Source: Candidatus Undinarchaeales archaeon | GTDB lineage: Archaea > SpSt-1190 > JASMDC01 | Direction: 5' to 3' | NCBI GenBank assembly: GCA_030753015.1 | Contig: JASMDC010000055.1 | Span: 1 to 16,847, forward strand | DNA: 16,847 bases | In this document: in pieces, positions 1 through 15,942 of the stretch | Layout of the letters: each line of letters starts with the position of its first letter | Position numbering within the stretch: the stretch's first letter is position 1 | Position numbers and translations under genes: made by a program | The notes under the pieces: model-generated | Told to the model about the DNA's origin: nothing | Database searches by the model: none | The model's input: the letters and a program-made list of their open reading frames with translations, nothing else

Positions 1-79
1 TGCGCCGGACGATATTTAACTGATTCCATACAGTTCTTCAAGAACATGACACGGGCGTTCGTATTCAAGGGGACGTTGG

Positions 80-409
80 TCACACCGAGGGCTCTACCTT
101 GGGCACGGACACGCCGCACGCCTTCATCTTCTCCTTGATGTCCCTTCGAAGGATCGGTACGTCGTAGTCATAGATGTCAGGAAGCTCCAGGTTCACGACC
201 TTGGAATAGAAGGCCGGGAATCTTTCGCGTATCCAGCTAGCTTGTTCTTTCTCGAACACGCAGATACGGTCCGCCCACCGCAACAATTCCTTGGTGACAG
301 GACGCTCGTCAGAACGGATACCGGCATACATCCCACCGTACATCTCCGCTGCCGTTCTGCTCCGGTTCTCGGCGGCGTTGCAGACGAACAGGAGGTTTGA
401 ACCAGACAT
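80..409 (-). CDS. Low-molecular-weight protein-tyrosine-phosphatase-like protein (COG4551-like), 109 aa
   Basis: Starts MSGSNLLFVCNAAENRSRTA, a C-x5-R-S P-loop after a hydrophobic beta strand. Later WADRICVFE and LELPDIYDY match the small LMW-PTP/arsenate-reductase fold. ATG at 409 lies 5 nt after the upstream stop (415-417). Confidence 0.8.
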   Translation of the reverse strand: MSGSNLLFVCNAAENRSRTAAEMYGGMYAGIRSDERPVTKELLRWADRICVFEKEQASWIRERFPAFYSKVVNLELPDIYDYDVPILRRDIKEKMKACGVSVPKVEPSV

Positions 410-414
410 GGCCC

Positions 415-1152: not shown

Positions 1153-1182
1153 TGGTACTTCCCCGATGCGATGCATGCAGTC

Positions 1183-1262
1183 CGATAATAAAAACCTGAC
1201 GTGAACAACGTGCTAGAACGTGTAACTATTTTTCGTACGCGTTCGAAAAAAGGCTTTATAGC
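1183..1262. promoter_or_regulatory. Divergent archaeal promoter region with operator
   Basis: + strand: A-rich BRE (GAAAAAAGG) then TTTATA at 1255-1260, about 23 nt before GTG 1283. - strand: TTTTTATTAT at 1185-1194. Near-perfect 22-bp palindrome TTTTTCGTACGCGTTCGAAAAA at 1229-1250. ACGTG repeated at 1199, 1208 and 1218. Confidence 0.7.
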
Positions 1263-1282
1263 GCCGCGAGAAGATAGGCCCC

Positions 1283-1585
1283 GTGGTGAACGAACTGCAC
1301 TGGACCGATCCCCGGAGGGCCTTCGCGCGCTACAATGCGTACTTGCATGAGCTCGGGTTCCCCTTCAGAGGGCGGGACCTGTACATCTTCTACGGGCTCT
1401 CGGCTTGGGCTGGGATCAACATCGCCCTCCTCTTCGACGTTGTCGTGGGCCGCTCGCCCAGCGGCAGCGAGATGGCGGTGACGTCCCTGGCTGCGTACTC
1501 CCTCATCATGATGGTGACCCTTCCGTTCCTGAAGGCGGAGGGCTTCATCGGCGTGGGATCACAGGGCGAGAGCGTGGACGTGTAG
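1283..1585 (+). CDS. Small membrane protein with two predicted TM helices, 100 aa
   Basis: Hydrophobic stretches LYIFYGLSAWAGINIALLFDVVV and MAVTSLAAYSLIMMVTLPFL. The GTG start is positioned for leaderless translation from TATA 1255. Confidence 0.65.
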   Translation: MVNELHWTDPRRAFARYNAYLHELGFPFRGRDLYIFYGLSAWAGINIALLFDVVVGRSPSGSEMAVTSLAAYSLIMMVTLPFLKAEGFIGVGSQGESVDV

Positions 1586-1594
1586 GTGATCGAC

Positions 1595-1729
1595 ATGTTA
1601 GTAGTAACATCTACGAAGGCGGCGTGGTGGCCTCGGTCCGTCCCACCGCCACCGGTACCGAGTGGACCCCGTGAGCCGGACGAGCTGCCCGAGCGCTGGG
1701 AGGAAGAGGACGACGACGGAACGGAGTGA
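1595..1729 (+). CDS. Small Pro-rich/acidic protein, 44 aa (absent from ORF track)
   Basis: Archaeal SD AGGTGAT (1584-1590) before ATG 1595. Translates MLVVTSTKAAWWPRSVPPPPVPSGPREPDELPERWEEEDDDGTE and fills the gap between its neighbours. Confidence 0.5.
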   Translation: MLVVTSTKAAWWPRSVPPPPVPSGPREPDELPERWEEEDDDGTE

Positions 1730-1736
1730 TGTGACC

Positions 1737-1928
1737 ATGACGAGCATGAACGATATCAAGGGAGCGATCAAGGAGGCGGCCCGCAAGGTCGCAAAGGAGA
1801 ACGGCTGGACGTACCGCGAGTCGGCGGAGATGGTCAAGGACCTGACCCTCGGGATGATCGAGGGCACCGTAGAGATCCTCACCCAACCTGAAGTGCGGGA
1901 CGGTTGCTGCGGCCCCGACTGCGACTAG
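1737..1928 (+). CDS. Small helical protein with Cys-rich tail, 63 aa
   Basis: SD GGAGTGA before ATG 1737. MTSMNDIKGAIKEAARKVAKENGWTYRESAEMVKDL...DGCCGPDCD, with GC3-biased codons. Confidence 0.6.
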   Translation: MTSMNDIKGAIKEAARKVAKENGWTYRESAEMVKDLTLGMIEGTVEILTQPEVRDGCCGPDCD

Positions 1929-1950
1929 CGACGAAGGGGGACGATCCGTA

Positions 1951-2337
1951 ATGAGCAAAGATGTTGACGAGAAGGGGATGCTAGAGTTGCTCGGTGACCT
2001 GGTCGATGCCTCCTTAGGGATAGTCTGGGCGTCCCTCGAGCTGGCTTACGCGTTCGTCGTGGTCTTTGCGAACGTGACCGGCCTCCTCCCCGGGACCGCG
2101 GATACGACCGAGACATTCTCCCTCGGAAAGAAGGCCACTGTCCACGTCAACGACTTCAGCCCGGACAGGGTCGCGGACATGGCCCCCGTGCTCTGCGAGG
2201 TCGAGGACCAGCTCAAACGCCTCTGCAGCAGCGGCCCTGTCGACGTCACGGTCAGCATAGAGGTCGACGGCGGAGACGTCCCCGTCTGCATCGAGGACTC
2301 TGTCCCAAGCGATTCTTGGTCCCTGTCGCACACGTGA
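1951..2337 (+). CDS. Hypothetical protein, 128 aa, possible N-terminal hydrophobic helix
   Basis: GAAGGGGG RBS and coding-like codon bias. No family recognised. Confidence 0.55.
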   Translation: MSKDVDEKGMLELLGDLVDASLGIVWASLELAYAFVVVFANVTGLLPGTADTTETFSLGKKATVHVNDFSPDRVADMAPVLCEVEDQLKRLCSSGPVDVTVSIEVDGGDVPVCIEDSVPSDSWSLSHT

Positions 2338-2416
2338 TGCTCCCCTGGGGGGAAGGAAACCCGGGGGCCGATGACGGCCGTGGGGACGCCACCGCCCCCC
2401 GGCCCGAGGCCCCCGA

Positions 2417-2475
2417 TGTTCACGTCCCGGCACGTGAAACGAACCGTGTTTCACGTGCTGATAATGCTTTTATTG
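2417..2475 (+). promoter_or_regulatory. Operator inverted repeat and TATA box of the Ubl operon
   Basis: Perfect 11-bp inverted repeat GCACGTGAAAC (2430-2440)-N7-GTTTCACGTGC (2448-2458). Extra half-site TGTTCACGTC (2417-2426). TATA-like TTTTATT at 2468-2474. Confidence 0.7.
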
Positions 2476-2549
2476 CGGCCGAGGCCAACTCCTCATTGAG
2501 CGACGAGGGAGACCCCGTCGCCCCAGATAAAGTGACTCTGGTGAACACT

Positions 2550-2873
2550 ATGGTACAGAACGACGAAAAGACCGTGAAGAAACCGGTCACCGAGCAGAAG
2601 ATGGAAGACGCGCCCACCGCTCCCACGCCGACGGCGACGGATGGCGGCGTCACCCTGCGCGTTGGCGTAGGGCTCTTCCACAAGCCCCGTAACGTGAGCC
2701 TCTCCGGCTCCGAGACCGTGAACGACGTGCGCCATCTCTTAGGTGTGCCCGTCGAGTACGTGGCCGTGGTCCCCGGCAGGGGAGTCGCCGAGGGCGGCTG
2801 CGCTGTGTGCGAGGCAGTCGACGAGGGCGAGGAACTCCTCTTCGTGCCCCTGACCGCCGGCGGATCCCGGTAG
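2550..2873 (+). CDS. Ubiquitin-like (beta-grasp) modifier precursor ending ...LTAGG-SR, 107 aa
   Basis: SD GGTGA at 2540-2544. VTLRVGVG..RNVSLSGSETVNDVRHLLGVP...EELLFVPLTAGG aligns by eye with ubiquitin (TLEVEPSDTIENVK..GIP...TLHLVLRLRGG). Di-Gly at 2859-2864 is followed by Ser-Arg-stop. Sits next to E2 and JAMM genes, with E1 in the same operon. Confidence 0.82.
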   Translation: MVQNDEKTVKKPVTEQKMEDAPTAPTPTATDGGVTLRVGVGLFHKPRNVSLSGSETVNDVRHLLGVPVEYVAVVPGRGVAEGGCAVCEAVDEGEELLFVPLTAGGSR

Positions 2874-2882
2874 GCGGTTGCC

Positions 2883-3803
2883 GTGTCGTCCGTCGCCGAG
2901 GTGAACCTGCGCGAGCGCGTAGCGTCCGCGGTGGAGGCTGCGCTCTCGGCGTTCGCACGGTTGCACGACCGGCCGCTCACCCTGCTCCCCCTCTCGAACG
3001 GGGAGCTGGCGGCACTTGACGCGGAGATCGACGGCGACGCGCAGGTCGGTCCACGTCAGCAGGTGCGGACGCTGGTGCGCAAGGCGGCCGGGAGACCGAT
3101 CATGCTGGTGGCTGGCGCAGGTCCGGTCAAGACCTATACAATGGCCAGGATGGCCCGCGATGCCTACGACCTCTCGCTGTGCATGGCGACGTTCATCGTG
3201 CGCGAGCTCGAGCACCTTCCAGAGGTGCTGGAGGCCGCCCGTCTTGAGAAGCGGTTGGTCGCAGCCAACAACCTGGGCAGGCTGGGATTCCGTGTACAGG
3301 ACGAGCGCGGGTCTCGATTCTCGGGAAAGGTGGAGGTGCGCAAGGGGCCGATCAAGGGGAGCTATAGGATGGATGTGCTCCTCCCGCCCCGGTTCCCCGA
3401 CACCCAGCCGTTCTTCCGGCTGGTCGACGTGCCGCGCCACCCCAACGTCTACGACAGCGGCGACGTGTGCCTGGGCCACTTCGTGTGGAACCCGGCGCTG
3501 GACATCACCGTCCTGGTGGAGCAGGTGCGTCACGTGCTGGAGAACCCGAATTACGAGGACGGATTGCACCGGGAGGGCGACGAAGAACAGGAGGAGCTCT
3601 CGGAGAACAGCGTACGTCTGCTGTCCCTGGTCGCTGAGCTTGTCAGTGAGCGGAAGCCCAGTGTGACCTACGCCGAGATACGGCAGGTGGCCTCGGAGCG
3701 CGGAGGGATGAGCCACGACGAGATCGATGGCGCGATACAAGAGCTCATCACCAGGGGCGAGATCTTCGAGCCCCAAGCTGGAAGGTACCAGCCGCTCATC
3801 TGA
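2883..3803 (+). CDS. Ubiquitin-conjugating enzyme E2 (UBC fold) with N-terminal extension and C-terminal winged-helix domain, 306 aa
   Basis: YRMDVLLPPRFPDTQP...HPNVYDSGDVCLGHFVWNPALDITVLVEQVRHVLENPN matches eukaryotic UBC (FPTDYPFKPP..HPNINSNGSICLDIL..WSPALTI..LLCDPN). HPN at 3438-3446, Cys at 3468-3470. Tail EIDGAIQELITRGEIFEPQAGRYQ resembles the archaeal MCM C-terminal wH. Confidence 0.9.
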   Translation: MSSVAEVNLRERVASAVEAALSAFARLHDRPLTLLPLSNGELAALDAEIDGDAQVGPRQQVRTLVRKAAGRPIMLVAGAGPVKTYTMARMARDAYDLSLCMATFIVRELEHLPEVLEAARLEKRLVAANNLGRLGFRVQDERGSRFSGKVEVRKGPIKGSYRMDVLLPPRFPDTQPFFRLVDVPRHPNVYDSGDVCLGHFVWNPALDITVLVEQVRHVLENPNYEDGLHREGDEEQEELSENSVRLLSLVAELVSERKPSVTYAEIRQVASERGGMSHDEIDGAIQELITRGEIFEPQAGRYQPLI

Positions 3804-3819
3804 ACAGGTAGTGATCCAT

Positions 3820-4290
3820 ATGGGAGAGCTGAAAGAGGGAATTGGCGAGGATAAGGGAGTGGGGATCCCCCACGTCCTCATAGATAGGGACATCGAGCGC
3901 GATATGTATGCCGCTGCCATGGCGCAGTACATCATCAACGGCGGGGAGGCGTCGGGACTCTTGGTAGGCAGGGTTGAGGCGGACGTCGTTACCGTCACGT
4001 CAGCACCCCATATGCCCGGCGAGAGCGAGCACTCCTTCTGTCGCATCCCCCCCCTCACGGCCGCCGAGCTGGCGGCCTCGCTGCCCGACGACGTCGCCGT
4101 GGTCGGCTGGTGGCACTCCCACCCCAGGTTCGCGCGAACGCCGAGCGCCACGGACCTCGCCACCATCGACTCCATGGTGCGGTCGTCACCTCTCGTGGTG
4201 TCGGTAATCGTCGACCCACTGGTCTGCGCAATGGACGTCTACATCACCGACGACAGCGGGACATGGCACGTGGATGGAGGGTACGGGTGA
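3820..4290 (+). CDS. JAMM/MPN+ (JAB) metallo-isopeptidase, Rpn11-like, 156 aa
   Basis: EASGLLVG ... VVGWWHSHPRFARTPSATD ... VVSVIVDP is a complete E-xn-H-S-H-x7-S-x2-D JAMM motif. GGTAGTGA RBS before ATG 3820. Confidence 0.92.
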   Translation: MGELKEGIGEDKGVGIPHVLIDRDIERDMYAAAMAQYIINGGEASGLLVGRVEADVVTVTSAPHMPGESEHSFCRIPPLTAAELAASLPDDVAVVGWWHSHPRFARTPSATDLATIDSMVRSSPLVVSVIVDPLVCAMDVYITDDSGTWHVDGGYG

Positions 4291-6953
4291 TGCCGAGTCT
4301 CGCTAGGCTGGCGCTTGACCGGGAACGTTCGCGGGCGCGGTCCAATAACAGGGGCGGGACGGAGCCATCTCTTGGTAGTCTGCTCGCGTTAGTTAGCAAT
4401 GAAATGGAACAAATCCCGGAGATCGAGCTCGGGGGGGAGGAGGTTGCGGACACGTCGCGCGAGCTCGCAGAGGCGCTCGGCCGCAACGATTATCGAGAAG
4501 CTATCATATTCCTAGTGATCCTGGTAAGGATGACCCGATCGATCATCGAGAGAAGTGGAGCGCATGAGATGCAACCGATAAACGGCTCGGTGGTCCGCTC
4601 GCTCCTCCGGTCCACTGAAGAGCTCGAGTGGATCCACGGCGATGGTGACGATCTCCCAGGAAAGCTCGTGTTCCGCCTGGACGAGGGTCTAGTAACGGGA
4701 ACCGAGCGTGCATTGGAGAACGAGGACCCCCGCGTGGTGGAGTACTGGAGGGCCTCCGGCCGCTGGCTCGAAGAGAGCGCTAATCCCGACCACGGGGAGA
4801 GGCCGAGGTGGCCGGAGGGATCCGACCCGACCGTGCCGCGACCTGGGCTCCCGCTCTCCTTCCTGTGCACGGCCCACGCGTGGGCCTTGGCGGCCATCCT
4901 GCGCTCCTGCTCTACACTCCGACGGGGGCGGTACCTCGTCTACCTGCAACTGCTCCACCCTCTCGCTGTGTCGCTCGACCTGCTGCGCCAGCTCGATGAC
5001 GAGCACGACAGGTACCTGACAGTGAGGGATGGCGAGGATGAGGATGGCATCTTCTTCCACGAGGCGCTCGACGTGCTCGCCCGTGAACGGGCCTCTTTGG
5101 AGAGAGTTGTGGCAGACCACCTCTCCTCGCTCTACGGCCTCGAGAGGCTAGAGTTCATCCCGCCCCTCTGGCTTGAGGGGCAAGTGAACATCGAGAGGCC
5201 GCGCCCCGCTGGCAGGGAACGTAATGTCGGGCATCCGGTGACCGAATCGGCCAGCCGCATTACGGTCTTTCTGGCGAGCCGGGACCTTGCAGGCTCGGTG
5301 GAATCGCTTGCCCGGGCCTGCGCTGCTACGACGGACGCGCTCGACCCGGTCCACGGCGTCCCGTGGCACAGGAGGACCCACTTGGCGGACAGGTTGAGGT
5401 CGACCGCGTGCGACATCGCCTGGGGGATGAACCGCATCCAGAACAGCGGGGGAGTGGTCGCTGACATGGCGACGATAACCCGCTTCCTCAGGCACGTGGA
5501 GGGAAGGACGGACAACAGCTATGGATCGCCCATCGCGTGGACCCTCGACGCCTTCAGGATGCTGGCCGAAGAACACTTGCTGGCGATGGCCGACGCTCTC
5601 GATCCGCCTTCGGCCGGCGAGGTGGGAGTCCGACCCGACCATACCCAGTTCGGCGGCATCCCCTACCAGTTCTCGTCGGGTGTAGCACTCTCAAGAGCGC
5701 GCGAGCACCTCCGCCGGTATGACGGTCCACTTTCGTCGGAAGGTCTCGGCGGGGACTGGGGCGAGGAAGAGGGTGCTCGGCTTCTAGCCGCTCTCCGGGA
5801 GCTGGTCCGGTCGCGTGATGGGCTGGCCGCCGCCATCGACATGATGATCGCGCGGGAGAACGAGGACATGACACATCTCACCGACGGCCACGTGCTCTGG
5901 GGGGACGGGCTGGCGGCCGTGCCGCGCCTGGAGCCGGTGTCCGAGGAAACACACCGTGATGAGGGGGGGACGCTCGAACGGACCGTCCGGAACGCCGTCG
6001 CGCTCGAAGACGGCACGGGCATGCTCCACTATGTGTACCCACGCTTCATCGACCGGGCGCTGGACATCATCGAGGAGCGCGGGAACGATATCCGCCCCCT
6101 CGGGACGAGCGGCTCTGGTGAGCTGGTGATCGAGATCAACGGCCGGGTGGTGACCGCTCACCGCAACCTCGACTACTACACATGCTCGTGCGAGGACTCG
6201 CACTACCGTTCAGCAGAGGACCGACACTTGTGCAAGCACGTGGCGGTCGCGGCCATCCTGTTCGGTGACTTCGAGCTGCGAGAGGATCTGCACCTGCAGC
6301 GGGCAGAGGCCCTCTCCACACAGTTCTCTGACATCAGGGAGCGGGTGCTCGCCGAGCGCGGTGGCCGTGCCGATCATCTCAGGCAGACCGTACTGCGACA
6401 GCTGGTGGGGACGACGGACAGGAACGGAATTGAACTCCGTCAACGTCGGGCTGAGCTGCATGATCGCATCCGGAACCTTGAGGTACAGCGTATGGAGACG
6501 CCCCTCCACAACCAAGAACTACGCCGGGAGCTCCGGCAGGAGCTGGAGCGATACAACCTCGAGCTCGAGTCCATCAACAGACCGCTGGAAGGGGCGGGGC
6601 CGGCCAGGCGCAGGCCCGGCGAGGTGCCAAGGAGGGGGGGACCGGACGTTCTGGAGGGGCAGAGGGAGATTCTCAGGACCAGGATCATGGACATCCAAGC
6701 GAATATCGAAGAGATCAACGCGCGGATAAGGGGAGAGGAACCCGAGGTTCTCGAAGGTAACGAGCGCCGGGAACTCATTCGCCAGCAGGCGTCCCTTGAG
6801 CAAGAGCTAGCACGGTCAAGGCACCGGTTGGAAGACGTCCAGCACCAGCTCCAGCGGTCCGAGGCCCACGGTCGCTCCGGACCGGTCACGCGAGCAGTAG
6901 TGCGGGCGCCACCAGGGATGTGGGAGTGCGCGCCACCGGGGGAGGGGAGCTGA
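4290..6953 (+). CDS. Large protein: uncharacterised helical domain, SWIM zinc finger, coiled coil and WECxPP tail, 887 aa
   Basis: TGATG overlap with the JAMM stop. SWIM YTCSCEDSHYRSAEDRHLCKH (6183-6239). Heptad-rich C-terminus. Only 2 Lys. Confidence 0.8.
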   Translation: MPSLARLALDRERSRARSNNRGGTEPSLGSLLALVSNEMEQIPEIELGGEEVADTSRELAEALGRNDYREAIIFLVILVRMTRSIIERSGAHEMQPINGSVVRSLLRSTEELEWIHGDGDDLPGKLVFRLDEGLVTGTERALENEDPRVVEYWRASGRWLEESANPDHGERPRWPEGSDPTVPRPGLPLSFLCTAHAWALAAILRSCSTLRRGRYLVYLQLLHPLAVSLDLLRQLDDEHDRYLTVRDGEDEDGIFFHEALDVLARERASLERVVADHLSSLYGLERLEFIPPLWLEGQVNIERPRPAGRERNVGHPVTESASRITVFLASRDLAGSVESLARACAATTDALDPVHGVPWHRRTHLADRLRSTACDIAWGMNRIQNSGGVVADMATITRFLRHVEGRTDNSYGSPIAWTLDAFRMLAEEHLLAMADALDPPSAGEVGVRPDHTQFGGIPYQFSSGVALSRAREHLRRYDGPLSSEGLGGDWGEEEGARLLAALRELVRSRDGLAAAIDMMIARENEDMTHLTDGHVLWGDGLAAVPRLEPVSEETHRDEGGTLERTVRNAVALEDGTGMLHYVYPRFIDRALDIIEERGNDIRPLGTSGSGELVIEINGRVVTAHRNLDYYTCSCEDSHYRSAEDRHLCKHVAVAAILFGDFELREDLHLQRAEALSTQFSDIRERVLAERGGRADHLRQTVLRQLVGTTDRNGIELRQRRAELHDRIRNLEVQRMETPLHNQELRRELRQELERYNLELESINRPLEGAGPARRRPGEVPRRGGPDVLEGQREILRTRIMDIQANIEEINARIRGEEPEVLEGNERRELIRQQASLEQELARSRHRLEDVQHQLQRSEAHGRSGPVTRAVVRAPPGMWECAPPGEGS

Positions 6954-9613
6954 TGCCCGATATATTCGACCGAGCAGTCCAGGAGCTCGAGAGCACCAGG
7001 AATGATGGACATGACTCCAACGAGCGCGCGCTGCAGCTCGCCAACATCGTGCACCGGCACGCCGAGGCGGAGTTCGGTGTCGACGGGCTCGAGCGCTCTC
7101 TTGACCCGCTGGCGACGTGCCTGCACGGCCGCGCGCACGCGGGAGAAACGTACGCCTGTCTCGTGCTACTCGCCGCCGCGTGCGACATCGCTGCGGACGT
7201 TGTGAACAGTACACGAGATGGTGGAGGGAACGTCCGTCAGCAACACACCCGGCCTCTACTCCAGATCGCGGGCGATCTCCTCTTCAATGATGATAGCACC
7301 CTCATCAACCAGCGGGAGGTCGTGCCCGGCTCCTTGGGCGAGGTCGTCATGGTGCCTGCCCGTGCAGGGACGCTGACACGTCCGCACGATGAAGACCGAG
7401 AGGGCCGATCTCATGACGACCTGCTCGCCTGGTGCGCGGTCCACCTCTGGGCCATCGGGCGAATCCTCGACGAGTGCTCGGGCGACGGCTTGAGCGCTGC
7501 CGGTATCGCGCGATTTGCCACGGTCGTACGGGCGCTGCGCACATTGGACCACGCGCAGTTCATGCACGCCGAGATCGAGGAGTACCCATGGGAAAGGGAT
7601 GCCTATGTGGAAGCTGCGCTCGCAGCTCTATTCAACAAGCGCAGCCGCCTGACGGGTCGGCTCGCCCAGTCCCTGCGCGACCGGCTCGGGCTCGAGCCGC
7701 CGCTGTTCATACGGCCGGGCGCACAGTTCATTCCAGGGAGGTTGTCGGTGGAGGACTGGGACCGGACCACCGTTAGGGAGGCTCTGGAGGTGGCCCGCCA
7801 CCTGGATGCTGGTGAGCTCAACGACGCACTCCGGTCCCTGGCACGGGCCATCCACGCCGGACTTAACGCGGACGACATCGGTCAGGATGAGCGGAGCACG
7901 ACCGCCCGTCGACTGCGGGCGATCTCCTGCGGCATCGCTTGGGGGATGGCGGCCCCGGTGGCGTACGACGACATGAACCGCGCCATGGGTGAGCTGGTCA
8001 GCTTCACGCGGGAGTGCTTCCAGATCAACCTTCCTGAAACGCGCGAACCGGGCCTCCCGCGGGCCGTCCGGGCGCACGTCGAGGCGCATCTGGAGGCGCT
8101 GGCGGTCGCGATCGATCCACCTCACGCCATTACATCCCGGGACGCGCCGCGGGCGTCCATCTGGCGCGGGCAGTCCGATCTGTTCCGTGTACCGCGGGAC
8201 CTGAGCGCCGACCACATCATCTCAAGTGTCCACGACCGGCTCCGTGTGCACAATCCGAGTTCCGACAACGTCGACCGGGTGAGCGACGAGCGTCGGGACG
8301 CCGAGGAGGAGCTCGCGAGGGCCCGGGGTCAGCTGCTCTCCTTGCTGGAGGAGATGGAGGACCAGGCAGACATCATGCTCGAGGACGACGATGCCATCTG
8401 GCCATTGCGCGGGATCGTCATCCCCTTAATCCCGGGCGCCACCGGTGAACTGCAAGGGGAAGGGGTGCCGTTCTTCGAGATGGAGTACCGGCGAGACGGC
8501 ACTCCCCTGAACATAGACATAGATTCCGAAACCGGCCAGCTGATCCGCACCACGGGGACCGCTTCACGCGGGAACATAATCCCGGACATCGCCACCCGCT
8601 ACCTGGAGGCCGCCGAGGAGCACGGGAGGGCCAGGGACGAGGCCGCGCGGCATGGCCTGCGGCGGTCGCGGGAGGAGCGGTTCTCCCGACAGGAGGCGGT
8701 CCCCGGATGGGACCAGGGCAGGTTACGGCGGGCCGTGGTCGTGGTCGCCGGAGTGGGCGGCCTGGGCGCGGCGGTGGTGGACCAGCTGGCACGGATGGGC
8801 GTCGGGACGGTCCGCGTCGTCGACCACGACCGGGTGGAGGACTCCAACATCTCGCGCCAGTGCCTCTACATCGCCGACGACGTCGGGAGCCTCAAGGTGG
8901 ACGCTGCCGCGCGACGGGTGTCGGACCTCGACGGGCCCACCCGCGTGGTCCCGCGACCCGCGTACTTATGCGAACGCAACGCTCTCATGCTGGTGGCCGG
9001 CGCCGACGTGGTGTTCGACTGCCTGGACAGCGAGAAGAGCAAGCACCTGCTCAACCACGCGTGCGCGCGGGCGGGGGTACCGCTGGTCCACGGGGGATGC
9101 ACGGGATTCATCGGGCAGGCGATGGCCGTGGTGCCGGGACGGACGGCGTGCCTGGCGTGCCGGGAGCTTACCTTCTCGGTGGCGGACACGGCCAGCTGCA
9201 CCCGCGACGAGACCCTGCCCATCGTGGCCCCCACGGCCCAGCTGGTGGCGTCCCTGCAGGTGGATCTGGCCCTGCACGTGCTCATGGGGACGGGCGACGT
9301 GCCGTCGGGGCTGCTCCTGTACGATGGCCGCGGGCCGGGCGTGCGGTCCGTGCCGGTGGAGCGCAGGGACGACTGCCCTGTGTGCGGAGGTAACGGGACG
9401 ACGGACGACGATGTGCGGACGGCGCTCTCACTCCAGTCTCAAGATTCCCTGCTCCAGATCGCCGGGGCCGTGGGGATGGAGCACGCCGACGGGATGGACA
9501 CCAGCAACCTCGTCGAAGCGCTCGTCGACGTGTTCTCGGCCCTCCCTGACGGCAGGCACCGTGCGCTACGACTGGCGTCGGGCGTGCAGTTCATCGAGGA
9601 GGCGATGTCGTGA
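6953..9613 (+). CDS. Ubl-activating enzyme E1 (ThiF/MoeB/UBA domain) fused to a ~575-aa N-terminal helical domain, 886 aa
   Basis: TGATG coupling. RFSRQ (8678), GVGGLG (8750), VVDHDRVEDSNISRQ, DVGSLK, DCLDS, Zn pairs CLAC and CPVC, and a crossover-loop Cys in ASCTRD (9197). Confidence 0.9.
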   Translation: MPDIFDRAVQELESTRNDGHDSNERALQLANIVHRHAEAEFGVDGLERSLDPLATCLHGRAHAGETYACLVLLAAACDIAADVVNSTRDGGGNVRQQHTRPLLQIAGDLLFNDDSTLINQREVVPGSLGEVVMVPARAGTLTRPHDEDREGRSHDDLLAWCAVHLWAIGRILDECSGDGLSAAGIARFATVVRALRTLDHAQFMHAEIEEYPWERDAYVEAALAALFNKRSRLTGRLAQSLRDRLGLEPPLFIRPGAQFIPGRLSVEDWDRTTVREALEVARHLDAGELNDALRSLARAIHAGLNADDIGQDERSTTARRLRAISCGIAWGMAAPVAYDDMNRAMGELVSFTRECFQINLPETREPGLPRAVRAHVEAHLEALAVAIDPPHAITSRDAPRASIWRGQSDLFRVPRDLSADHIISSVHDRLRVHNPSSDNVDRVSDERRDAEEELARARGQLLSLLEEMEDQADIMLEDDDAIWPLRGIVIPLIPGATGELQGEGVPFFEMEYRRDGTPLNIDIDSETGQLIRTTGTASRGNIIPDIATRYLEAAEEHGRARDEAARHGLRRSREERFSRQEAVPGWDQGRLRRAVVVVAGVGGLGAAVVDQLARMGVGTVRVVDHDRVEDSNISRQCLYIADDVGSLKVDAAARRVSDLDGPTRVVPRPAYLCERNALMLVAGADVVFDCLDSEKSKHLLNHACARAGVPLVHGGCTGFIGQAMAVVPGRTACLACRELTFSVADTASCTRDETLPIVAPTAQLVASLQVDLALHVLMGTGDVPSGLLLYDGRGPGVRSVPVERRDDCPVCGGNGTTDDDVRTALSLQSQDSLLQIAGAVGMEHADGMDTSNLVEALVDVFSALPDGRHRALRLASGVQFIEEAMS

Positions 9614-10479
9614 GCACCGGATTCCCTGGAGCAGCGCCCCGTGTGTACGGGCGACGAATGGGTCGGGGGCCGACGGTCGAGGTCTACGAGGAGGGATTCG
9701 TCGTCGAGCGCTGCCCGACTTGTGGCAGGCACCTCAAGGATATGACCGACTGGCCGAATGTAAGGGTTACCGGGATCGAGGACGCGGTGGACGACGTGCG
9801 CCGCGAGTCCCTTTCGCGGCTGGTGCGGCGCGGGCCCTTCCTGCTCCAGTGGGGGACCGTGCCGGGATGCGCGAGCGGAGCGATGCAGCGGTGCCTGGTC
9901 GACGAGCTGGGCCTGAACTGGGCGGCCGGGGCCGAGGTGCACCCGGTCGGCGACAGGTCGGTCCTCGTCATTAGAGGTCGGCGGTGGTGCATGGTCACCC
10001 TCGATCAGGACGAGCTCGTCGCGCACCTCGAGGTGGATGATGGGAGGAGGCTCGAGCTGGGCGTCGCTCGACTCGGCGACCGTGTCGACCTCCATATCCC
10101 TCTCGACGACGACGATGTCGATGATAGGACCGCTCCTTACCTCTGGGCCCGGAACCCCGCTGCGGTGCACTCCGCGAGGGCTGCTGTAGCCCATCTCAAG
10201 GGATTCGTCGGCACGGACGCGGATCCGGACCGGATAGCTGAGCTGTGGCGCGCCGAGGGATTCAGCGGACCATGGGCCCGTTACCACGAGTTCAGGGGTG
10301 TCCGGATCGTGCAGGTCGGCGGTTACGCGCTCTACCTCGACGACAACGTCCTTACGCTTGTCGACGCGGACAGGATCGGCGGTGGGCTCGACGGTCCTCC
10401 GCCGGTGACGTTCCGTCTGGCGCGGGTGCTGTACGAGGGGATGCTGCACGAAGAGCGGAGCGGTGGCGGCAGTGGCTGA
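9610..10479 (+). CDS. Hypothetical protein with CxxC knuckle and central beta-rich domain, 289 aa
   Basis: GTGA overlap with the E1 stop and GGAGG RBS. ERCPTCGRH. Coding-like codon bias. Only 2 Lys. Confidence 0.7.
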   Translation: MSTGFPGAAPRVYGRRMGRGPTVEVYEEGFVVERCPTCGRHLKDMTDWPNVRVTGIEDAVDDVRRESLSRLVRRGPFLLQWGTVPGCASGAMQRCLVDELGLNWAAGAEVHPVGDRSVLVIRGRRWCMVTLDQDELVAHLEVDDGRRLELGVARLGDRVDLHIPLDDDDVDDRTAPYLWARNPAAVHSARAAVAHLKGFVGTDADPDRIAELWRAEGFSGPWARYHEFRGVRIVQVGGYALYLDDNVLTLVDADRIGGGLDGPPPVTFRLARVLYEGMLHEERSGGGSG

Positions 10480-12286
10480 GGACGGAACGATCCTTCTCGC
10501 GTGCGAACGCGCGCACCACCAGGCCGTCGCCGGGAAGAGGGATGACATGATGGAGTGCCTCCGGTTCGCCGGTGATAGTATCTCTAACATCATGCGCACC
10601 CGGTCTTTCTCGCGACGACCGCGTGCCCGTTCCATGGATTCATTGCAGTTGGACGAGCGAATTGCGTCCTTGTCAGCCCACCTCATCACTGGTGGCACAG
10701 GTCCCGCCCCGGGCCCACGAGTGATCGCAGTACCCCTTGACACGGGGCGGACGTGCCCTGACCTCAGGGACGGACCATTAGACACACAACTACATCTGTG
10801 CTGCCCCCCGCGCACGTTGTGCGCGGCGGAATTATGGACGCTCTCCCGCGTCTTTCACTTGGCCATCTGCGGCGCAGGTGACGTGCATGAGCGCATAGTC
10901 ATGTCCGACCTCGTACGCATAGGGAGAGCGCTCACAAGCCTGACCGATCCCCTGTTCCCTTTTGGGGGGGTCGCCTCCGGGTTGGGAGACGACCTCTTTA
11001 TGTACCCTCTTGATATGCTCTCCTTTAACCGGACTTCATCGGATGACGGTGCGGATGCAAGGCACGCAGTCGTTCGGGAAAGGCTCGACGATGTCGCGCA
11101 GGTCGAGCGCCACCATATCGTCGACGTTGCCCTGGACGCGGCCCTCGGCCTCCAGTGCGGCAGGACCGAGGACATGGCGCGCGGCCTCACCTCCCTAGAG
11201 GAAATGTGCCGGATAACCGCGTCGGTCCTGGAGGGCGGGACGGAAGAACCCGGTGAGAGGGACGTCACGCTCCTCCGGTTCATATCAGCCACCCTTGCAC
11301 TGGAGGACGTCATCGCGGCGACTGAGACGGATATCTTCTTCGATACCATGGAGCTCGGAAGGTCCGTGCTCACGTCAAGTTATATCGGGGCGTACTACGG
11401 CGGGATGCCGGACCCCGTACAGTTCAGGCTGGCGTGCGAGCACCATATCGAGGCATGCGCGAGCGCGCTCGACACCAGAGCGGACCTATCGGGGGCAGTC
11501 TGGCAGGGCGTGGGTCAGTGGTATCAGCTCGGTCCCGACGAGGGGGTGGTCCTTCCGCTCCTGAACGCCCGGGAGCGACTCATGCGGTACAGGTCAGACT
11601 TCAGACCCCCGGAGGACGCTGTGGATCACGAGGTCACGTCAGCGTCCAGAGCCCTGTCGCGGCAGCGCGACCAGCTCCTTGACGTGCTGGACGCACGGAT
11701 CGCTGCTCTGACGGAGGGCGCTATGAGAACTGCAGGGCGTCGGTACGTATCGCTCTCGTATCCCGAAGGAATAGTCGCCGCCGCAGAGGGCGCAACGGTC
11801 GGGCCCGACGTACCGGGCGACCAGGTCTGCGCGACCGTTCGGAGCGGGGAACACCCTGAATGGGATGTGACCCGGTGGACGCTGGTACAGGCCCAGCACT
11901 TCATCAAGAAGCACGGGTATCTCATCGATCGCCTGGGTACCAGCCAAACGGGCGAGCCGGTGCTTGTCGTGGACTCGCACGTAGTGGCGCTGGGTCAGGA
12001 CAACCTGGATCGAGACCGCTACCGCCCCCTCTACGAGTGCTACTCATGCCGGGAGTTTCGTGAGCAGAACGGGACCCGACCCCGGCTCTGCAAGCACCTA
12101 ACGGCGGCGCTCATCATCATGGGCCGACTGGGTGAGCGCGAGGGTGTCGACCTCAGCCTGCTCGACCGGGCCCTCGCATTGATAAGGGAGGAGGTCGGGA
12201 TGACGGGCATCCGCGGGCGGTACCGCAGCAGCGCGTGCGCGGGCGACGGGGTATGGGAGTGTCGGGCGCCAAGGGAGGGGGTATGA
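10463..12286 (+). CDS. Paralog of 4290-6953: helical domain, SWIM-like zinc finger and WEC tail, ~607 aa (start may be GTG 10472)
   Basis: YECYSCREFREQNGTRPRLCKH (12038-12097). LGTSQTGEPV motif. Shared helical-domain motifs. Ends GVWECRAPREGV. Confidence 0.78.
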   Translation: MAAVAEDGTILLACERAHHQAVAGKRDDMMECLRFAGDSISNIMRTRSFSRRPRARSMDSLQLDERIASLSAHLITGGTGPAPGPRVIAVPLDTGRTCPDLRDGPLDTQLHLCCPPRTLCAAELWTLSRVFHLAICGAGDVHERIVMSDLVRIGRALTSLTDPLFPFGGVASGLGDDLFMYPLDMLSFNRTSSDDGADARHAVVRERLDDVAQVERHHIVDVALDAALGLQCGRTEDMARGLTSLEEMCRITASVLEGGTEEPGERDVTLLRFISATLALEDVIAATETDIFFDTMELGRSVLTSSYIGAYYGGMPDPVQFRLACEHHIEACASALDTRADLSGAVWQGVGQWYQLGPDEGVVLPLLNARERLMRYRSDFRPPEDAVDHEVTSASRALSRQRDQLLDVLDARIAALTEGAMRTAGRRYVSLSYPEGIVAAAEGATVGPDVPGDQVCATVRSGEHPEWDVTRWTLVQAQHFIKKHGYLIDRLGTSQTGEPVLVVDSHVVALGQDNLDRDRYRPLYECYSCREFREQNGTRPRLCKHLTAALIIMGRLGEREGVDLSLLDRALALIREEVGMTGIRGRYRSSACAGDGVWECRAPREGV

Positions 12287-13032
12287 TGCCTGGCGGGAGC
12301 GGGGAGGGCGCCAGCTCCTGGAGCGACCGGCAGAGGGAGCTCGCCGAGTACGCCGGTATAATCCTGATGGAGGAGGGTGAGACCTTCGAGCAGGCGGAGA
12401 GGCGCCAGGAGAGGGAGATGCGTGAGCGCGGGGCCAGGCGCACAGGAGTTACCGGCGAGCAGACCGGCCAGGCTCCTGGGCAGCGACCGCGCGAGGTGTC
12501 CGGGGCGTCTTCGGACAGCGCGTCCCGGGGCGGGGCGCCGGCGGCGGACCTCGAGGGCGCGAGGACCGGCGGGCGGGACCGACCGGCGTGGACCACGTGG
12601 CGGGATCCGGGAGGCGTCGAGTGGCGGATCACGCTGGACAAGCTCAACAGGGCCGCCAACATCCTCCTGACCGAGTTCGACCTCAGGCGCATGGGCACCA
12701 GCGCGGTCGGAGAGATCGTGCTCGAGATCGCGTCCCGCGTCGTCACGGTGAACCTGGAGCGCCGCTACTGCGTGTGCTCATGCGAGGACTACCGCTCAAG
12801 CAGCGAGGGGGACCACCACCTGTGCGAGCACGTAGTGGCCGCGCTCTTCATCATGGGGGAGCTGGGGGAGCGCGAGGGCATCGATCTCGGCCTCTTCTCC
12901 CCGCTCGTCCCCGCGATCAGGAACTGGCTCCTTTTCGATGGGAACCCTGATACCCTTGCGGAGGACGGGAAAGGGCGGAGCGAGGGTTGGGAATGTCGGC
13001 CACCGGGGGATGGGAGGGAGTGCGACGGGTGA
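12283..13032 (+). CDS. SWIM zinc-finger protein with low-complexity N-terminus and WEC tail, 249 aa
   Basis: ATGA overlap and GGAGGGGG RBS. MGTSAVGEIV...YCVCSCEDYRSSSEGDHHLCEHVVAAL. Ends EGWECRPPGDGRECDG. Confidence 0.78.
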   Translation: MMPGGSGEGASSWSDRQRELAEYAGIILMEEGETFEQAERRQEREMRERGARRTGVTGEQTGQAPGQRPREVSGASSDSASRGGAPAADLEGARTGGRDRPAWTTWRDPGGVEWRITLDKLNRAANILLTEFDLRRMGTSAVGEIVLEIASRVVTVNLERRYCVCSCEDYRSSSEGDHHLCEHVVAALFIMGELGEREGIDLGLFSPLVPAIRNWLLFDGNPDTLAEDGKGRSEGWECRPPGDGRECDG

Positions 13033-13130
13033 GGGTGACAGCGGGGCCGACAAGCTGGTGGACCCATGGCGGTCGCTGGCATGCTCGTGCTGCGGCACGG
13101 GTGATGATGAAGGAGGTGTTCCGATCATGA
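13029..13130 (+). CDS. Possible 33-aa coupling peptide
   Basis: GTGA overlap with the upstream stop and ATGA overlap with the downstream start. MRVTAGPTSWWTHGGRWHARAAARVMMKEVFRS. Confidence 0.35.
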   Translation: MRVTAGPTSWWTHGGRWHARAAARVMMKEVFRS

Positions 13131-13351
13131 CGATGTACACGGTGAAACGGATGAAGGGAGGATGGTCTGTCCACGACCACGTCGAGGACGAGGACTTCGA
13201 GATACCGGACGGCGCGGTCATCACCTACGAGGTGCGGACGCGGCTCACCGGTCCGGAAGAGATGATGGAGGTCGTCGGATCCAAGACTGGCAAGCTGGCA
13301 CTGGTGGCGGCGGTGTGCATGATGCCGTGCCCGGAGGAGGTGGCGGGATGA
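13127..13351 (+). CDS. Small beta-rich hypothetical protein, 74 aa
   Basis: Strong SD AGGAGGTG before ATG 13127. MTMYTVKRMKGGWSVHDHVEDEDFEIPDG...CMMPCPEEVAG. Confidence 0.65.
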   Translation: MTMYTVKRMKGGWSVHDHVEDEDFEIPDGAVITYEVRTRLTGPEEMMEVVGSKTGKLALVAAVCMMPCPEEVAG

Positions 13352-13476
13352 CGCTGTGCAGGATGCGCCAGGCCGGGATCGAGCCCGTCTCGTATCATGT
13401 CGGCCCGGTCCTGCTCGTCTACCATTTCATGCTGAAGCGAGCGCTGAGGGAGATGAGACGTGTGAAGGGGAGGTGA
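13348..13476 (+). CDS. Small hypothetical protein, 42 aa
   Basis: SD GGAGGAGGTGG and ATGA overlap. MTLCRMRQAGIEPVSYHVGPVLLVYHFMLKRALREMRRVKGR. Confidence 0.5.
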   Translation: MTLCRMRQAGIEPVSYHVGPVLLVYHFMLKRALREMRRVKGR

Positions 13477-13491
13477 TGGAGGAGAGATCGT

Positions 13492-13689
13492 GTGCTGAAC
13501 GCCTTCGTCAGGCTGGTGGTGGATATACTCCCGCTACCGCTCGGCCTGACGGCGGGGGTGCCGGGCATCTCGTCCGGCACGAGCCTCGAGGGTAAAGCGC
13601 ACCCGGCGGGCGGAGGGCTCGCGCGGGGCGGGGAGAGAGGCGGTGAGCCGTCCATGGCGGAAAGACGGAAAAAGGTGACACCCATATGA
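13492..13689 (+). CDS. Possible small hypothetical protein, 65 aa (alternative: 13476-13595, 39 aa)
   Basis: GGAGGAG RBS before GTG, and its stop overlaps the nuclease ATG. The reading frame is ambiguous and the sequence is low-complexity. Confidence 0.3.
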   Translation: MLNAFVRLVVDILPLPLGLTAGVPGISSGTSLEGKAHPAGGGLARGGERGGEPSMAERRKKVTPI

Positions 13690-14597
13690 CACCGACAGAA
13701 CAAGGGGAAAGATCCATGCCCGAACTCGAGGACTGGTTCCATAGGTACAACAAGTGGTCGTTCAGCAAGCACAGGCTCTGGAACGAGTGCAGGCGACAGT
13801 ACTGGTACCGGTACATCGGCACGGCACTGCGGACCTCTGATGAGGTGGACGTTGCGCGACTGAAGGCCTTGCGCGGGCTGACACCCCGCGCCGCCCTCGA
13901 GGGTATGCTGGTCCACGATGCGATCGAGAAGCAGATGGACCGCTTCGCCAGAGGGATGACCGTCAATGAGGAGCTGGCGGCCAAGCACCTCGTCAGCGAG
14001 ATGGCCAAGTTCACGGGAACACCCCGGGATAAGATCATCGAGTTCCACAACGGCGTCGAGCAGCCCGAGAACTACTTCGAGCGGGTGCAAGACGGGGGCA
14101 TCGGGAAGCTCGGGACGTTCTTCGCCAAGATATGGCCACGCATCGAGGGCTCGGAGCACCTGAGGCACGAGAAGTTCGACGAGGTCACGGTGGGCGACGT
14201 GGTCGCGACCGTGAAGGTCGATCTCGCATGCCGGATGGCCGACGACACGATCGTCGTCTACGACTGGAAGACAGGGCGCGAGGATCCCGCGTACGAGAGC
14301 GAACTCCAGCTCGGCGCCTACGTGCTGTGGGCGAGCCGGTATTACAGCGCAGCACCGGAGAAGGTGCGGAGCGAGCTTGTGTACCTGGCGACCGGGAACG
14401 TACGCAGGCACGAGTTCTCCGCCGAGCAGCTCGACAGGGTAGGGCTGCTGATCGTGTCGGACTTCAAGAGGAGGAACAGCTCGTACGAGATGGGCGCGTT
14501 CTCCCCCGACCCCGGTCCGTGGAAGTGCCAGGGGTGCCGGTTCGCGACTGTGTGCCCCCACTCGCTGCACGGGGAGGCGCCGGGAGGAGGTCCCTGA
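13686..14597 (+). CDS. PD-(D/E)XK nuclease, RecB/AddB/Cas4-like, with 4-Cys Fe-S staple, 303 aa
   Basis: WSFSKHRLWNECRRQYWY, GMLVHDAIE, KVDL...YDWKTG, QLGAY, and C-terminal CQGCRFATVCP. SD AGGTGA. Confidence 0.88.
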   Translation: MTPTEQGERSMPELEDWFHRYNKWSFSKHRLWNECRRQYWYRYIGTALRTSDEVDVARLKALRGLTPRAALEGMLVHDAIEKQMDRFARGMTVNEELAAKHLVSEMAKFTGTPRDKIIEFHNGVEQPENYFERVQDGGIGKLGTFFAKIWPRIEGSEHLRHEKFDEVTVGDVVATVKVDLACRMADDTIVVYDWKTGREDPAYESELQLGAYVLWASRYYSAAPEKVRSELVYLATGNVRRHEFSAEQLDRVGLLIVSDFKRRNSSYEMGAFSPDPGPWKCQGCRFATVCPHSLHGEAPGGGP

Positions 14598-14654
14598 TCC
14601 ACCTGCTGTCACGAATTAAAAGACTAGATGCATGGATCGATCCGAGGGAAGGAC

Positions 14655-14852
14655 ATGCGCACCAGGATCACCACCATAGGCCAGAGCGAGAACGCCATCA
14701 CCCGCCCCCCGTGGGCGACGTGCAAGCTCGACGGCTTCGTACCGGACCGAGCGGTGCTCATGGATCCTGGCAGCAGGGGCGTGGACCGGGATGCCCTTAA
14801 GGCCTCGGTAGCGCCCTCGTGCACGTGCGGAAGGATCCCAGCGCCAACGTGA
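14655..14852 (+). pseudogene. Short ORF or possible truncated CARF-like gene fragment, 65 aa
   Basis: GAGGGAAGG RBS. MRTRITTIGQSENAITRPPWA...FVPDRAVLM loosely resembles CARF motif I (iTTvGtSp.av...lwa...PD.v.Ll), then loses coding character. Confidence 0.3.
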
Positions 14853-14877
14853 ACGTCACCCTGTTACACGTACGCGG

Positions 14878-14892
14878 AATTCTTTTATATCG
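14878..14892 (+). promoter_or_regulatory. TATA box for the ABC exporter unit
   Basis: TTTTATAT at 14883-14890 in otherwise GC-rich DNA, about 22 nt before ATG 14912. Confidence 0.55.
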
Positions 14893-14911
14893 CCCCTGAC
14901 TCCTCTTTTCC

Positions 14912-15067
14912 ATGGACGCAGACGACACGGTAGGCGGCCACATCGAGCAGGCGATCATCGGCGACGACGCCGTGGGGATGGTGATGCCGCTGGCCGTCGC
15001 GGGCGACGAGCTGGAGCGGCTCGCCGGGCCCACCCGGGAAAAAAACACTCTAGAGCTGATAGCGTGA
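14912..15067 (+). CDS. Small acidic protein or leader ORF, 51 aa (absent from ORF track)
   Basis: Leaderless position relative to the TATA box. MDADDTVGGHIEQAIIGDDAVGMVMPLAVAGDELERLAGPTREKNTLELIA. Its stop overlaps the ABC GTG (GTGA). Confidence 0.45.
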   Translation: MDADDTVGGHIEQAIIGDDAVGMVMPLAVAGDELERLAGPTREKNTLELIA

Positions 15068-15942
15068 CATTGAGGATCGAGGGCCTGACGAAGAGCTTCG
15101 ACAGCAAGACAGTCCTCAACGACATCTCCTTCTCCGTGGACAGGGGGGAGGTGTTCGGCCTCCTCGGCCCCAATGGTGCGGGAAAGACCACCATGATCCT
15201 GATCATCCTTGACATCCTCGGACCCGACTCGGGTCGGATTTCCATCTTCGGAGACCGTCTCTCTGAAGCGATCAAGGACCGGATCGGATACCTGCCCGAG
15301 GAGAGCGACCTGTACCCGAACGTGACCGTCCGCGATTGCATCAGGTATTTCTCCCGGTTGAAAGGGTTCGATGCCACCGACGAACGGATCGATCACTGGC
15401 TTCAGAGGATGAAGCTCGGGGAGTACGGGGACAAGAGCGTGGAAGAACTGAGCAAGGGCATGCAGAGATTGCTGCACATCATCATCTCGTTCATACACGA
15501 GCCGGACTTCCTCGTCCTGGACGAACCGTTCTCCGGGCTGGATCCGGTGAACAAGGAGCTGGTCAAGGACATCGTACTCGATCTGAAATCCAGAGGCATG
15601 ACCATCATCATGAGCACCCATCAGATGGACGAGGTCGAGAAGATGTGTGACCGGATCCTCATGATCAACAAGGGCGACCAGGTACTCTACGGGAACCTGA
15701 ACGAGATCAAGGGCCGGCACGGATCATCCATCGTCGTTGCATACGAAGGGGAGCTCCCTCCCCTGGAAGACATCGAGCGGGTGAACGATTACGGTAACTT
15801 CGCGGAGTTGATCATCGGGAGGGGGGCGGACCCGCAGGCCATCCTGAGAGAACTGGTGGAGAGGGTGACTATACGCAAGTTCGAGGTCAAGACCCCTTCG
15901 CTGGACGAGATCTTTATCGAGGTGGTCGGGAATGAGGAATAA
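15064..15942 (+). CDS. ABC-2 type exporter ATP-binding subunit (NatA/YhaQ-like), 292 aa
   Basis: Walker A GPNGAGKTT, Q-loop GYLPEE, signature LSKGMQR, Walker B LVLDEPFSGLD, H-loop MSTH, and C-terminal PSLDEIFIEVVG. Confidence 0.95.
   Translation: MTLRIEGLTKSFDSKTVLNDISFSVDRGEVFGLLGPNGAGKTTMILIILDILGPDSGRISIFGDRLSEAIKDRIGYLPEESDLYPNVTVRDCIRYFSRLKGFDATDERIDHWLQRMKLGEYGDKSVEELSKGMQRLLHIIISFIHEPDFLVLDEPFSGLDPVNKELVKDIVLDLKSRGMTIIMSTHQMDEVEKMCDRILMINKGDQVLYGNLNEIKGRHGSSIVVAYEGELPPLEDIERVNDYGNFAELIIGRGADPQAILRELVERVTIRKFEVKTPSLDEIFIEVVGNEE

Follow-up and report, generated by a model that had tools for sequence, protein, structure and literature searches.

The window analysed here, a stretch of 16,847 nucleotides from a Candidatus Undinarchaeales archaeon (positions 1-16847 on a contig of 20.4 kb, in an assembly of 3.85 Mb and 117 contigs), carries on its plus strand a tight operon that extends over ~2.3-13.4 kb. 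In order, this operon encodes a candidate ubiquitin-like protein (Ubl), an E2, a JAMM protease, a SWIM-like protein (SWIM1), an E1, a protein of 289 amino acids, two further SWIM-like proteins (SWIM2 and SWIM3) and, possibly, a protein of 74 amino acids. The question considered below is what the C-terminal tails of the three SWIM-like proteins are for. All three proteins end in a G-x-W-E-C-[AR]-[PA]-P tail, and the short linear motif contained in it, W-E-C-x-[PA]-P, is carried by each known protein of a SWIM-like family that is itself very small. The genes and tails in question are as follows:

4290..6953, plus strand: SWIM1, 887 amino acids
10463..12286, plus strand: SWIM2, ~604-607 amino acids
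12283..13032, plus strand: SWIM3, ~249 amino acids
6915..6953, plus strand: SWIM1 tail, GMWECAPPGEGS and stop; Trp codon at 6921; the TGA stop overlaps the ATG of E1
12248..12286, plus strand: SWIM2 tail, GVWECRAPREGV and stop; Trp codon at 12254; the stop overlaps the ATGATG start of SWIM3
12985..13032, plus strand: SWIM3 tail, (E)GWECRPPGDGRECDG and stop; Trp codon at 12988; the next credible gene start lies 95 nucleotides downstream

SWIM1-3 are paralogs that have in common a module of ~100 amino acids (beta strands, finger and helix), and SWIM1 and SWIM2 additionally share ~200 amino acids upstream of it. In SWIM1, a helical N-terminal region is followed by the finger (CSC..CKH, 6183-6239), a charged, helical, coiled-coil-like linker of ~200 amino acids and the tail. 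SWIM2 combines a helical N-terminal region with a variant finger (CYSC..CKH, 12038-12097), a short linker and the tail, and SWIM3 consists of a low-complexity N-terminus, the finger (CSC..CEH, 12775-12831), a short linker and the tail.

Relatives are few. A profile search over 1.84 billion representative proteins (E <= 0.001) returned four matches, namely, the SWIM1 ortholog P0004 (85% identical to SWIM1), the SWIM2 ortholog P0002, SWIM3 itself, and a distant protein of 377 amino acids, P0005 (E 3.2e-11). Since P0002 is represented here by its full-length cluster mate P0006 (67.5% identical to SWIM2), the family comprises six distinct proteins: SWIM1-3, P0004, P0005 and P0006. The finger signature C-x-C...C-x-H is seen in four of these (CSC..CKH in SWIM1 and P0004, CSC..CEH in SWIM3, CTC..CEH in P0005); SWIM2 and its ortholog P0006 carry a C-x-x-C variant (CYSC and CFSC) with CKH. 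Four zinc ligands are thus already present in the finger of 6/6 family proteins.

The scores against the Pfam SWIM family (PF04434) lie below the gathering cut-off of 19.6 bits (SWIM1 module, 17.5; SWIM3, 18.5; P0004, 15.4) and, being borderline, are the reason why we call these proteins SWIM-like; SWIM2, P0005 and P0006 gave no match to PF04434 at E <= 1, for which, in the case of SWIM2 and P0006, the C-x-x-C spacing may account. A Foldseek comparison of the modelled SWIM3 module with the PDB yielded nothing at E <= 0.001. In a VIA search, a fold comparison independent of Foldseek, the top two of the 45 rows were both SWIM proteins with low Z scores, namely, ZSWIM8 (PDB 9rwz; Z 4.5, root-mean-square deviation 3.2, 76 aligned residues) and Shu2 (PDB 6dex; Z 4.1, root-mean-square deviation 4.6, 95 aligned residues).

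Conservation of the C-terminal motif

The motif was originally predicted from the DNA sequence alone. Re-reading the sequence gives exactly the Trp codons (6921, 12254 and 12988) and the tails reported then, and the linkers, which had been put at about 50 to more than 200 amino acids, measure ~227, 52 and 52 residues from the C-x-H of the finger to the Trp in SWIM1, SWIM2 and SWIM3, respectively. A reality check is, of course, whether such a motif could recur by chance. A six-frame scan of the 3.85 Mb genome (33,493 stop-to-stop segments of at least 60 amino acids) revealed four occurrences of WEC.[PA]P: three are the SWIM tails, and the fourth is an internal site on contig C23. The composition predicts ~0.16 such sites in segment ends and ~1.1 in any position. 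Across the family, WEC is the sole 3-mer common to the post-finger regions of all six distinct proteins, and the Trp stands 10-14 residues from the C-terminus in 6/6 of them, while the post-finger region can be as short as 62 or as long as 283 amino acids. In a shuffle control, a 3-mer common to the last 20 amino acids of four shuffled sequences was encountered in 2 of 20,000 shuffles. Given that SWIM1-3 are paralogous, the origin of the motif is common descent; it is its retention that needs to be explained.

The relatives bear directly on this retention. The original prediction had named absence of the motif from orthologs as an observation that would tell against it; the motif is present in the orthologs and in one distant relative, i.e. 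in 3/3 further proteins (P0004, P0005 and P0006; tails GMWECAPPEEGS, GEWECRPPGRSGHEG and GGSWECAPPEEGI). P0005 retains it despite an unrelated post-finger region of 283 amino acids. In the alignment of SWIM1 with P0004, the last 17 columns are 94% identical, compared to 67, 57 and 80% in the part of the linker just before them, taken as three blocks of 30 columns, and in that of SWIM2 with P0006, W-E-C-R-x-P is conserved and followed by complete divergence.

Conservation at the end of a gene that overlaps the next one could also be imposed by the DNA, and this, in the form of a ribosome-binding site, was another outcome named in advance as telling against it. In SWIM1 and SWIM2, the terminal G-E-G-x-stop indeed overlies GGAGGGG and then TGATGCC, with the stop overlapping the next start. 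The same arrangement, a TGATGCC overlap after GGAGGG with a downstream protein that begins M-P, is observed at JAMM-SWIM1 (4287-4292), SWIM1-E1 (6950-6955) and SWIM2-SWIM3 (12281-12288), and GGAGGG..TGATGCC at these three junctions is a repeated translational-coupling signal. The JAMM-SWIM1 junction carries this signal without WEC (JAMM ends in DGGYG), which suggests that translational coupling may be what dictates the trailing [ED]-G. The core of the motif behaves differently. It lies 17-32 nucleotides upstream of the next start, outside the range of a ribosome-binding site; the codons that vary from paralog to paralog (GAG/GAA and TGC/TGT) leave the SWIM residues unaltered but alter those of the +1 frame; no credible gene overlaps the tail of SWIM3, after which 95 nucleotides pass before a plausible start, with GGAGGTG, is reached; and, by the scan described above, the motif is no general element of the genome. 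The synonymous differences and the free-standing SWIM3 tail indicate that W-E-C-x-P-P is conserved as protein. Hence, as judged from the codons, the core is retained at the protein level and the objection fails for it, whereas the last residues, G-[ED]-G-x over GGAGGGG/TGATG, may be conserved at the level of DNA.

The structural models place this motif on a mobile end. In an AlphaFold2 model of the SWIM3 module (alignment depth six sequences), the finger module is predicted with a pLDDT (predicted local distance difference test) of 70-86 and tail residues 122-150 with ~30-39, so that in the monomer the tail appears disordered and unpacked against the finger. The full-length SWIM2 model, with a mean pLDDT of 42.3, is too low in confidence to read any docking of the tail on the helical region, and complex predictions for the last 45 amino acids of SWIM3 with the E2 alignment, JAMM and E1 residues 560-886 gave a score of 0.00 against a mark of 0.32, the partner's own fold being uncertain, which speaks neither for nor against a contact. 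Comparison of a 27-amino-acid tail with the PDB by sequence brought up nothing apart from two trefoils designed de novo, at E 0.3, which were dismissed. A functional peptide on a flexible tether fits the retention of the motif, the synonymous changes and the predicted disorder; of the functions that the original prediction had offered for the tail, an extra zinc ligand has become the weakest option, since a finger with four ligands does not need one from the tail and the tail is undocked in the model.

The operon and its distribution

The other genes of the operon and its two flanks are as follows:

2550..2873, plus strand: candidate Ubl, C-terminus ..LTAGG-SR and stop; start uncertain, open frame from 2316
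2883..3803, plus strand: E2 with UBC fold (HPN...C196), an N-terminal extension and a C-terminal winged-helix-like end
3820..4290, plus strand: JAMM/JAB metalloprotease with an HSHP..S..D motif (complete H-x-H..S..D); the stop overlaps the SWIM1 ATG
6953..9613, plus strand: E1, ThiF/MoeB-type adenylation domain at residues ~570-820, after an N-terminal region of ~550 amino acids
9610..10479, plus strand: protein of 289 amino acids between E1 and SWIM2, no family match
13127..13351, plus strand: possible 74-amino-acid gene, GGAGGTG ahead of the ATG, no family match
415-1176, minus strand: CARF/Csa3-like regulator with a winged-helix end (CARF-winged helix-turn-helix), operon flank
13686-14597, plus strand: Cas4-like PD-(D/E)XK nuclease with a C-terminal Cys cluster, operon flank

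The three enzymes are readily recognized: E2 matches PF00179 with 45.8 bits (cut-off 27), JAMM matches PF14464 with 41.6 bits and E1 matches PF00899 with 178.8 bits, the latter two likewise above the cut-off. The HPN and Cys196 of E2 are invariant across nine homologs, and its closest PDB sequences are eukaryotic E2s of the Ubc13 type; the best PDB matches of E1 are ThiF and MoeB, with MccB and PaaA also among the matches. The candidate Ubl has no Pfam, NCBIfam or PDB sequence match, and its likeness to SAMP2/ThiS clusters (Atlas feature score 0.85) serves as a lead only. It carries the residues S-R after the GG (2865-2873), so it would have to be trimmed before activation, presumably by the adjacent JAMM protease. 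The 289-amino-acid protein had no useful Atlas match.

The N-terminal ~550 amino acids of E1 (6953-8629), mostly helical, are paralogous to the N-terminal region of SWIM1 (4290-6160; 25% identity over 442 columns, E 2e-13), and the two regions have a C-x-I-A-W-G-M motif in common; in its sequence, E1 looks like a SWIM1-type protein with a ThiF domain in place of finger and tail. At the other end of the operon, 3' of SWIM3, a possible GTGA stop/start overlap leads into a 33-amino-acid frame (13029-13130), which itself ends in an ATGA overlap with the 74-amino-acid frame; the latter ends in ..CMMPCPEEVAG. In one contig from sequencing run X7, different upstream DNA leads into a version of the window from position 13073 on that shows 13 differences, so that the small 74-amino-acid gene is found in another context, too.

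The source genome is archaeal, as its gene for ribosomal protein S28e shows, although a search for SSU rRNA found none in it. Among 17 genomes of the phylum (one class, source genome included), the alignment profile A1 matched the source genome only, and the E2 query gave one weak partial match elsewhere (E 1.5e-6, residues 224-305); the operon is absent from a same-genus genome that is 99% complete. No DNA of the relatives was found among genome contigs with A1 and P0005 as queries, and the metagenome contigs searched with A1 contained only a 100%-identical contig of 5.1 kb, the two peptide patterns used there being of a kind that would miss P0004 and P0005. Viral contigs (queries A1, P0005 and the E2 alignment) contained no such locus, though one search returned two tblastn relatives, and plasmids searched by tblastn with SWIM2 and E2 yielded none. 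Three runs labelled as marine, seawater or unspecified metagenome contain pieces at least 99% identical to the window, and contig pieces from runs X7, X14, X15 and X17 are identical to it across two tails where these are covered; as there are no variants at the tails, these four runs say nothing on selection. Two 36-nucleotide pieces from X15, less than 90% alike, are probably unrelated.

The SWIM system is extremely rare, a SWIM-like addition to a known type of operon. Its composition also deviates from the surroundings, with a guanine-plus-cytosine content of 64-70% in the operon as compared to 60% in the genome and 58-59% at the ends of the window. The CARF- and Cas4-like flanks, the raised guanine-plus-cytosine content and the absence from the same-genus genome together suggest a variable, possibly defensive, island.

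What the tail might do

The scenario that we tentatively favour, while giving it somewhat less than an even chance, is that the tail Cys is a tethered reactive thiol of an E3-like adaptor which would work together with the E2 and E1 of the operon. The SWIM proteins are its sole multi-copy, diversified component, and no RING, HECT or RBR match was obtained among the 15 open reading frames scanned with Pfam at E <= 0.01 (a scan of frames of 60 amino acids and longer); hence, these proteins could be the substrate-selecting, E3-like parts, with the finger-plus-tail module in common and the N-terminal parts varied. The tail Cys would reach the charged E2 (or E1) and accept the Ubl as a thioester, and the Ubl would then be passed to a substrate held by the remainder of the SWIM protein. 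Trp and Pro-Pro might provide the grip, and the neighbouring Glu could assist the chemistry. The other enzymes of the operon work through Cys thioesters, and where a disordered peptide of the cytosol keeps a Cys invariant, chemistry or metal binding is usually at work, not simple docking.

A bolder form of the same idea would see in the SWIM proteins a previously unseen kind of thioester-forming E3, in which the finger holds the machinery or the substrate and the invariant Cys, on a long arm, shuttles the Ubl from E2 to the targets, as a 'swinging-arm' counterpart of HECT and RBR ligases, with three paralogs standing for three specificities in one, possibly defensive, operon. As a whole, this picture is rather unlikely.

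Several considerations weigh against a reactive thiol. In the known Cys-dependent E3s, the Cys lies within a folded, E2-binding domain, so that a bare tail would be unusual. The adjacent Glu aside, no second catalytic residue is conserved. The family amounts to four clusters at 50% identity, i.e. ~4 independent lineages, so the word 'invariant' rests on few data, and the codon comparison made above covers the paralogs of a single locus. The numbers of clusters found are uneven, too: word-index searches yielded two clusters for SWIM2 and one for SWIM3, versus at least eight further 90%-identity clusters for E2 (77-97% identical, on contigs of up to 86 kb, most of which are short). E2 may have a wider distribution than the SWIM proteins; alternatively, the difference may reflect faster divergence of the SWIM genes, or their location beyond the ends of contigs that are mostly short.

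The strongest competitor to the reactive thiol is a plain, non-covalent docking handle that would tether every SWIM protein to one common partner, with the Cys being only a part of the fit. The data on conservation, position and disorder fit such a handle equally well, a Trp plus Pro-Pro is typical of contacts in peptide-binding grooves, and the three paralogs and the distant P0005 have only the finger module and the tail in common, as would befit a common partner; the closest analogy is provided by the C-terminal Ubl- and E2-binding peptides of UBA5. However, purely non-covalent motifs seldom feature an invariant Cys, and the partner is a matter of candidates, among them the Ubl, E2, E1 as such or through its helical N-terminal region, the 289-amino-acid protein and a host factor. 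On balance, we consider docking as the whole explanation to be doubtful, a possibility to be taken seriously all the same.

Less probable is a metal-mediated switch, whereby the Cys, perhaps together with the Glu, would ligate a metal in trans, for example, the catalytic zinc of JAMM, which would thereby be kept latent, or would add a ligand at the SWIM zinc. Such latency would resemble the cysteine switch in the pro-domains of matrix metalloproteinases; a carboxylate does stand beside the invariant Cys; and JAMM, whose H-x-H..S..D motif is complete, is encoded by a gene translationally coupled to SWIM1 through the TGATG overlap. Nothing, however, points to JAMM specifically, the SWIM sites have their four ligands in 6/6 proteins, and the tail is undocked in the monomer model, albeit one with a depth of only six sequences. 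We regard this switch as improbable.

It could be argued, further, that the tail has no function at all, being a relic of tandem duplication that is held in place by the DNA constraints of the ribosome-binding site and of an alternative start of the next gene. SWIM1-3 are paralogous, after all; in their DNA, the tails of SWIM1 and SWIM3 show 83% identity over 29 nucleotides, and a stretch of 102 nucleotides in the finger regions shows 72% identity between SWIM2 and SWIM3; the last codons of SWIM1 and SWIM2 do overlie GGAGGGG and the TGATG overlap; and alternative upstream starts of the next gene (GTG 6920, ATG 12253), which some database entries use, overlap the WEC codons. Against this stand the codon differences, synonymous when read in the SWIM frame but not when read in the +1 frame, the position of WEC 17-32 nucleotides upstream of the start, beyond the ribosome-binding site, the SWIM3 tail with no credible overlapping gene, the JAMM-SWIM1 junction with the same signal and no WEC, and the survival of the motif in P0005 despite the replacement of all that lies between its finger and its tail. 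A mere relic is, therefore, very improbable.

Least likely of all, with hardly any probability left to it, is a modifier-like end that would be trimmed and adenylated at its C-terminal Gly by the ThiF-type E1, the nearby Cys reacting in cis or as a relay: 6/6 proteins do finish in [ED]-G plus 0-1 residue (GEG-S, REG-V, CDG, EEG-S, HEG and EEG-I; SWIM3 by its final D-G), the Ubl of the operon likewise has GG plus two residues, and peptide C-termini are known substrates of some members of the ThiF family (MccB and PaaA, which are among the PDB matches of E1), but [ED]-G-x-stop is the very pattern to be expected from a GGAGGGG ribosome-binding site before TGATG, the unrelated JAMM ends in DGGYG at such a junction, and the tails are devoid of a beta-grasp fold.

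The choice between a reactive thiol and a docking handle is of some consequence. Prokaryotic Ubl conjugation operons have been used for tracing the origin of the eukaryotic system and, lately, have attracted attention as antiviral defences, with the choice of substrates remaining mostly obscure. If the tail Cys does take part in a relay, this would be a new and very simple archaeal design of a ligase. Should the tail prove to be just a docking handle, it would nonetheless mark the proteins that plug into the machinery and could serve as a peptide bait for the partner. With the family being extremely rare, the general importance of either outcome is limited, unless the same principle recurs elsewhere.

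Comparison with known systems

The closest archaeal parallel is the eukaryote-like ubiquitin operon of Caldiarchaeum subterraneum, which is reported to comprise ubiquitin, E1, E2, a small RING finger protein and Rpn11 (PMC5654768, PMC6043591). The operon described here resembles it in having a JAMM protein, a ThiF-type E1, an E2 with the UBC fold and HPN, and a candidate modifier of the GG type that would have to be trimmed, encoded by adjacent or overlapping genes on one strand. It differs from the Caldiarchaeum operon in that the 15 scanned frames include no RING match and there are, instead, three SWIM-like proteins with a Cys tail, in that E1 has a helical N-terminal region of 550 amino acids common to SWIM1, and in that the core of E2 has long extensions on both sides.

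The bacterial Bil, CBASS Cap2/Cap3 and Bub systems are likewise reported to combine an E1, an E2, a deubiquitinase-type protease and a Ubl, and no mention of SWIM was found in these two papers (PMC10557695, PMC11601596); the Bub pathway is reported to rely on oxyesters and serine proteases (PMC11601596). Further points of resemblance are the defence-like flanks of our operon (the CARF regulator and the Cas4-like nuclease) and its absence from the same-genus genome. PADLOC models of conjugation defence systems matched our operon at the level of domains only (JAB with E down to 4.6e-10; E1-E2 models on the ThiF part with E down to 9e-17) and gave no match for E2, the Ubl or the SWIM proteins. 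A SWIM protein linked to such a Ubl operon was not found in a full-text literature search from which subscription journals are mostly missing, so that an earlier description is possible; the papers on Ubl, E1, E2 or JAB systems that the search turned up do not use the word SWIM.

With ZSWIM8 and Shu2, SWIM proteins that are tied to ubiquitin ligases or protein complexes, the family shares the C-x-C...C-x-H signature. Neither of the two is known to have a C-terminal W-E-C tail.

As for the Cys-dependent E3s (HECT, RBR and RCR/MYCBP2), the analogy would be that the proposed Cys takes the modifier from E2 as a thioester and, as in HECT, lies near the C-terminus. The differences are that the SWIM proteins and the other operon frames gave no match to a HECT, RING1-IBR-RING2 or tandem-Cys Pfam family, and that the Cys is carried here by a tail predicted to be disordered, not by a folded lobe.

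Flexible C-terminal arms offer a further set of analogies, with unrelated sequences, in the redox arm of thioredoxin reductase, the UBA5 peptides and the cysteine switch of matrix metalloproteinases. By analogy with these, the SWIM tails might be viewed as one more case of a short conserved motif that is borne on a mobile terminal arm and employed either to present a reactive Cys or to dock a partner.

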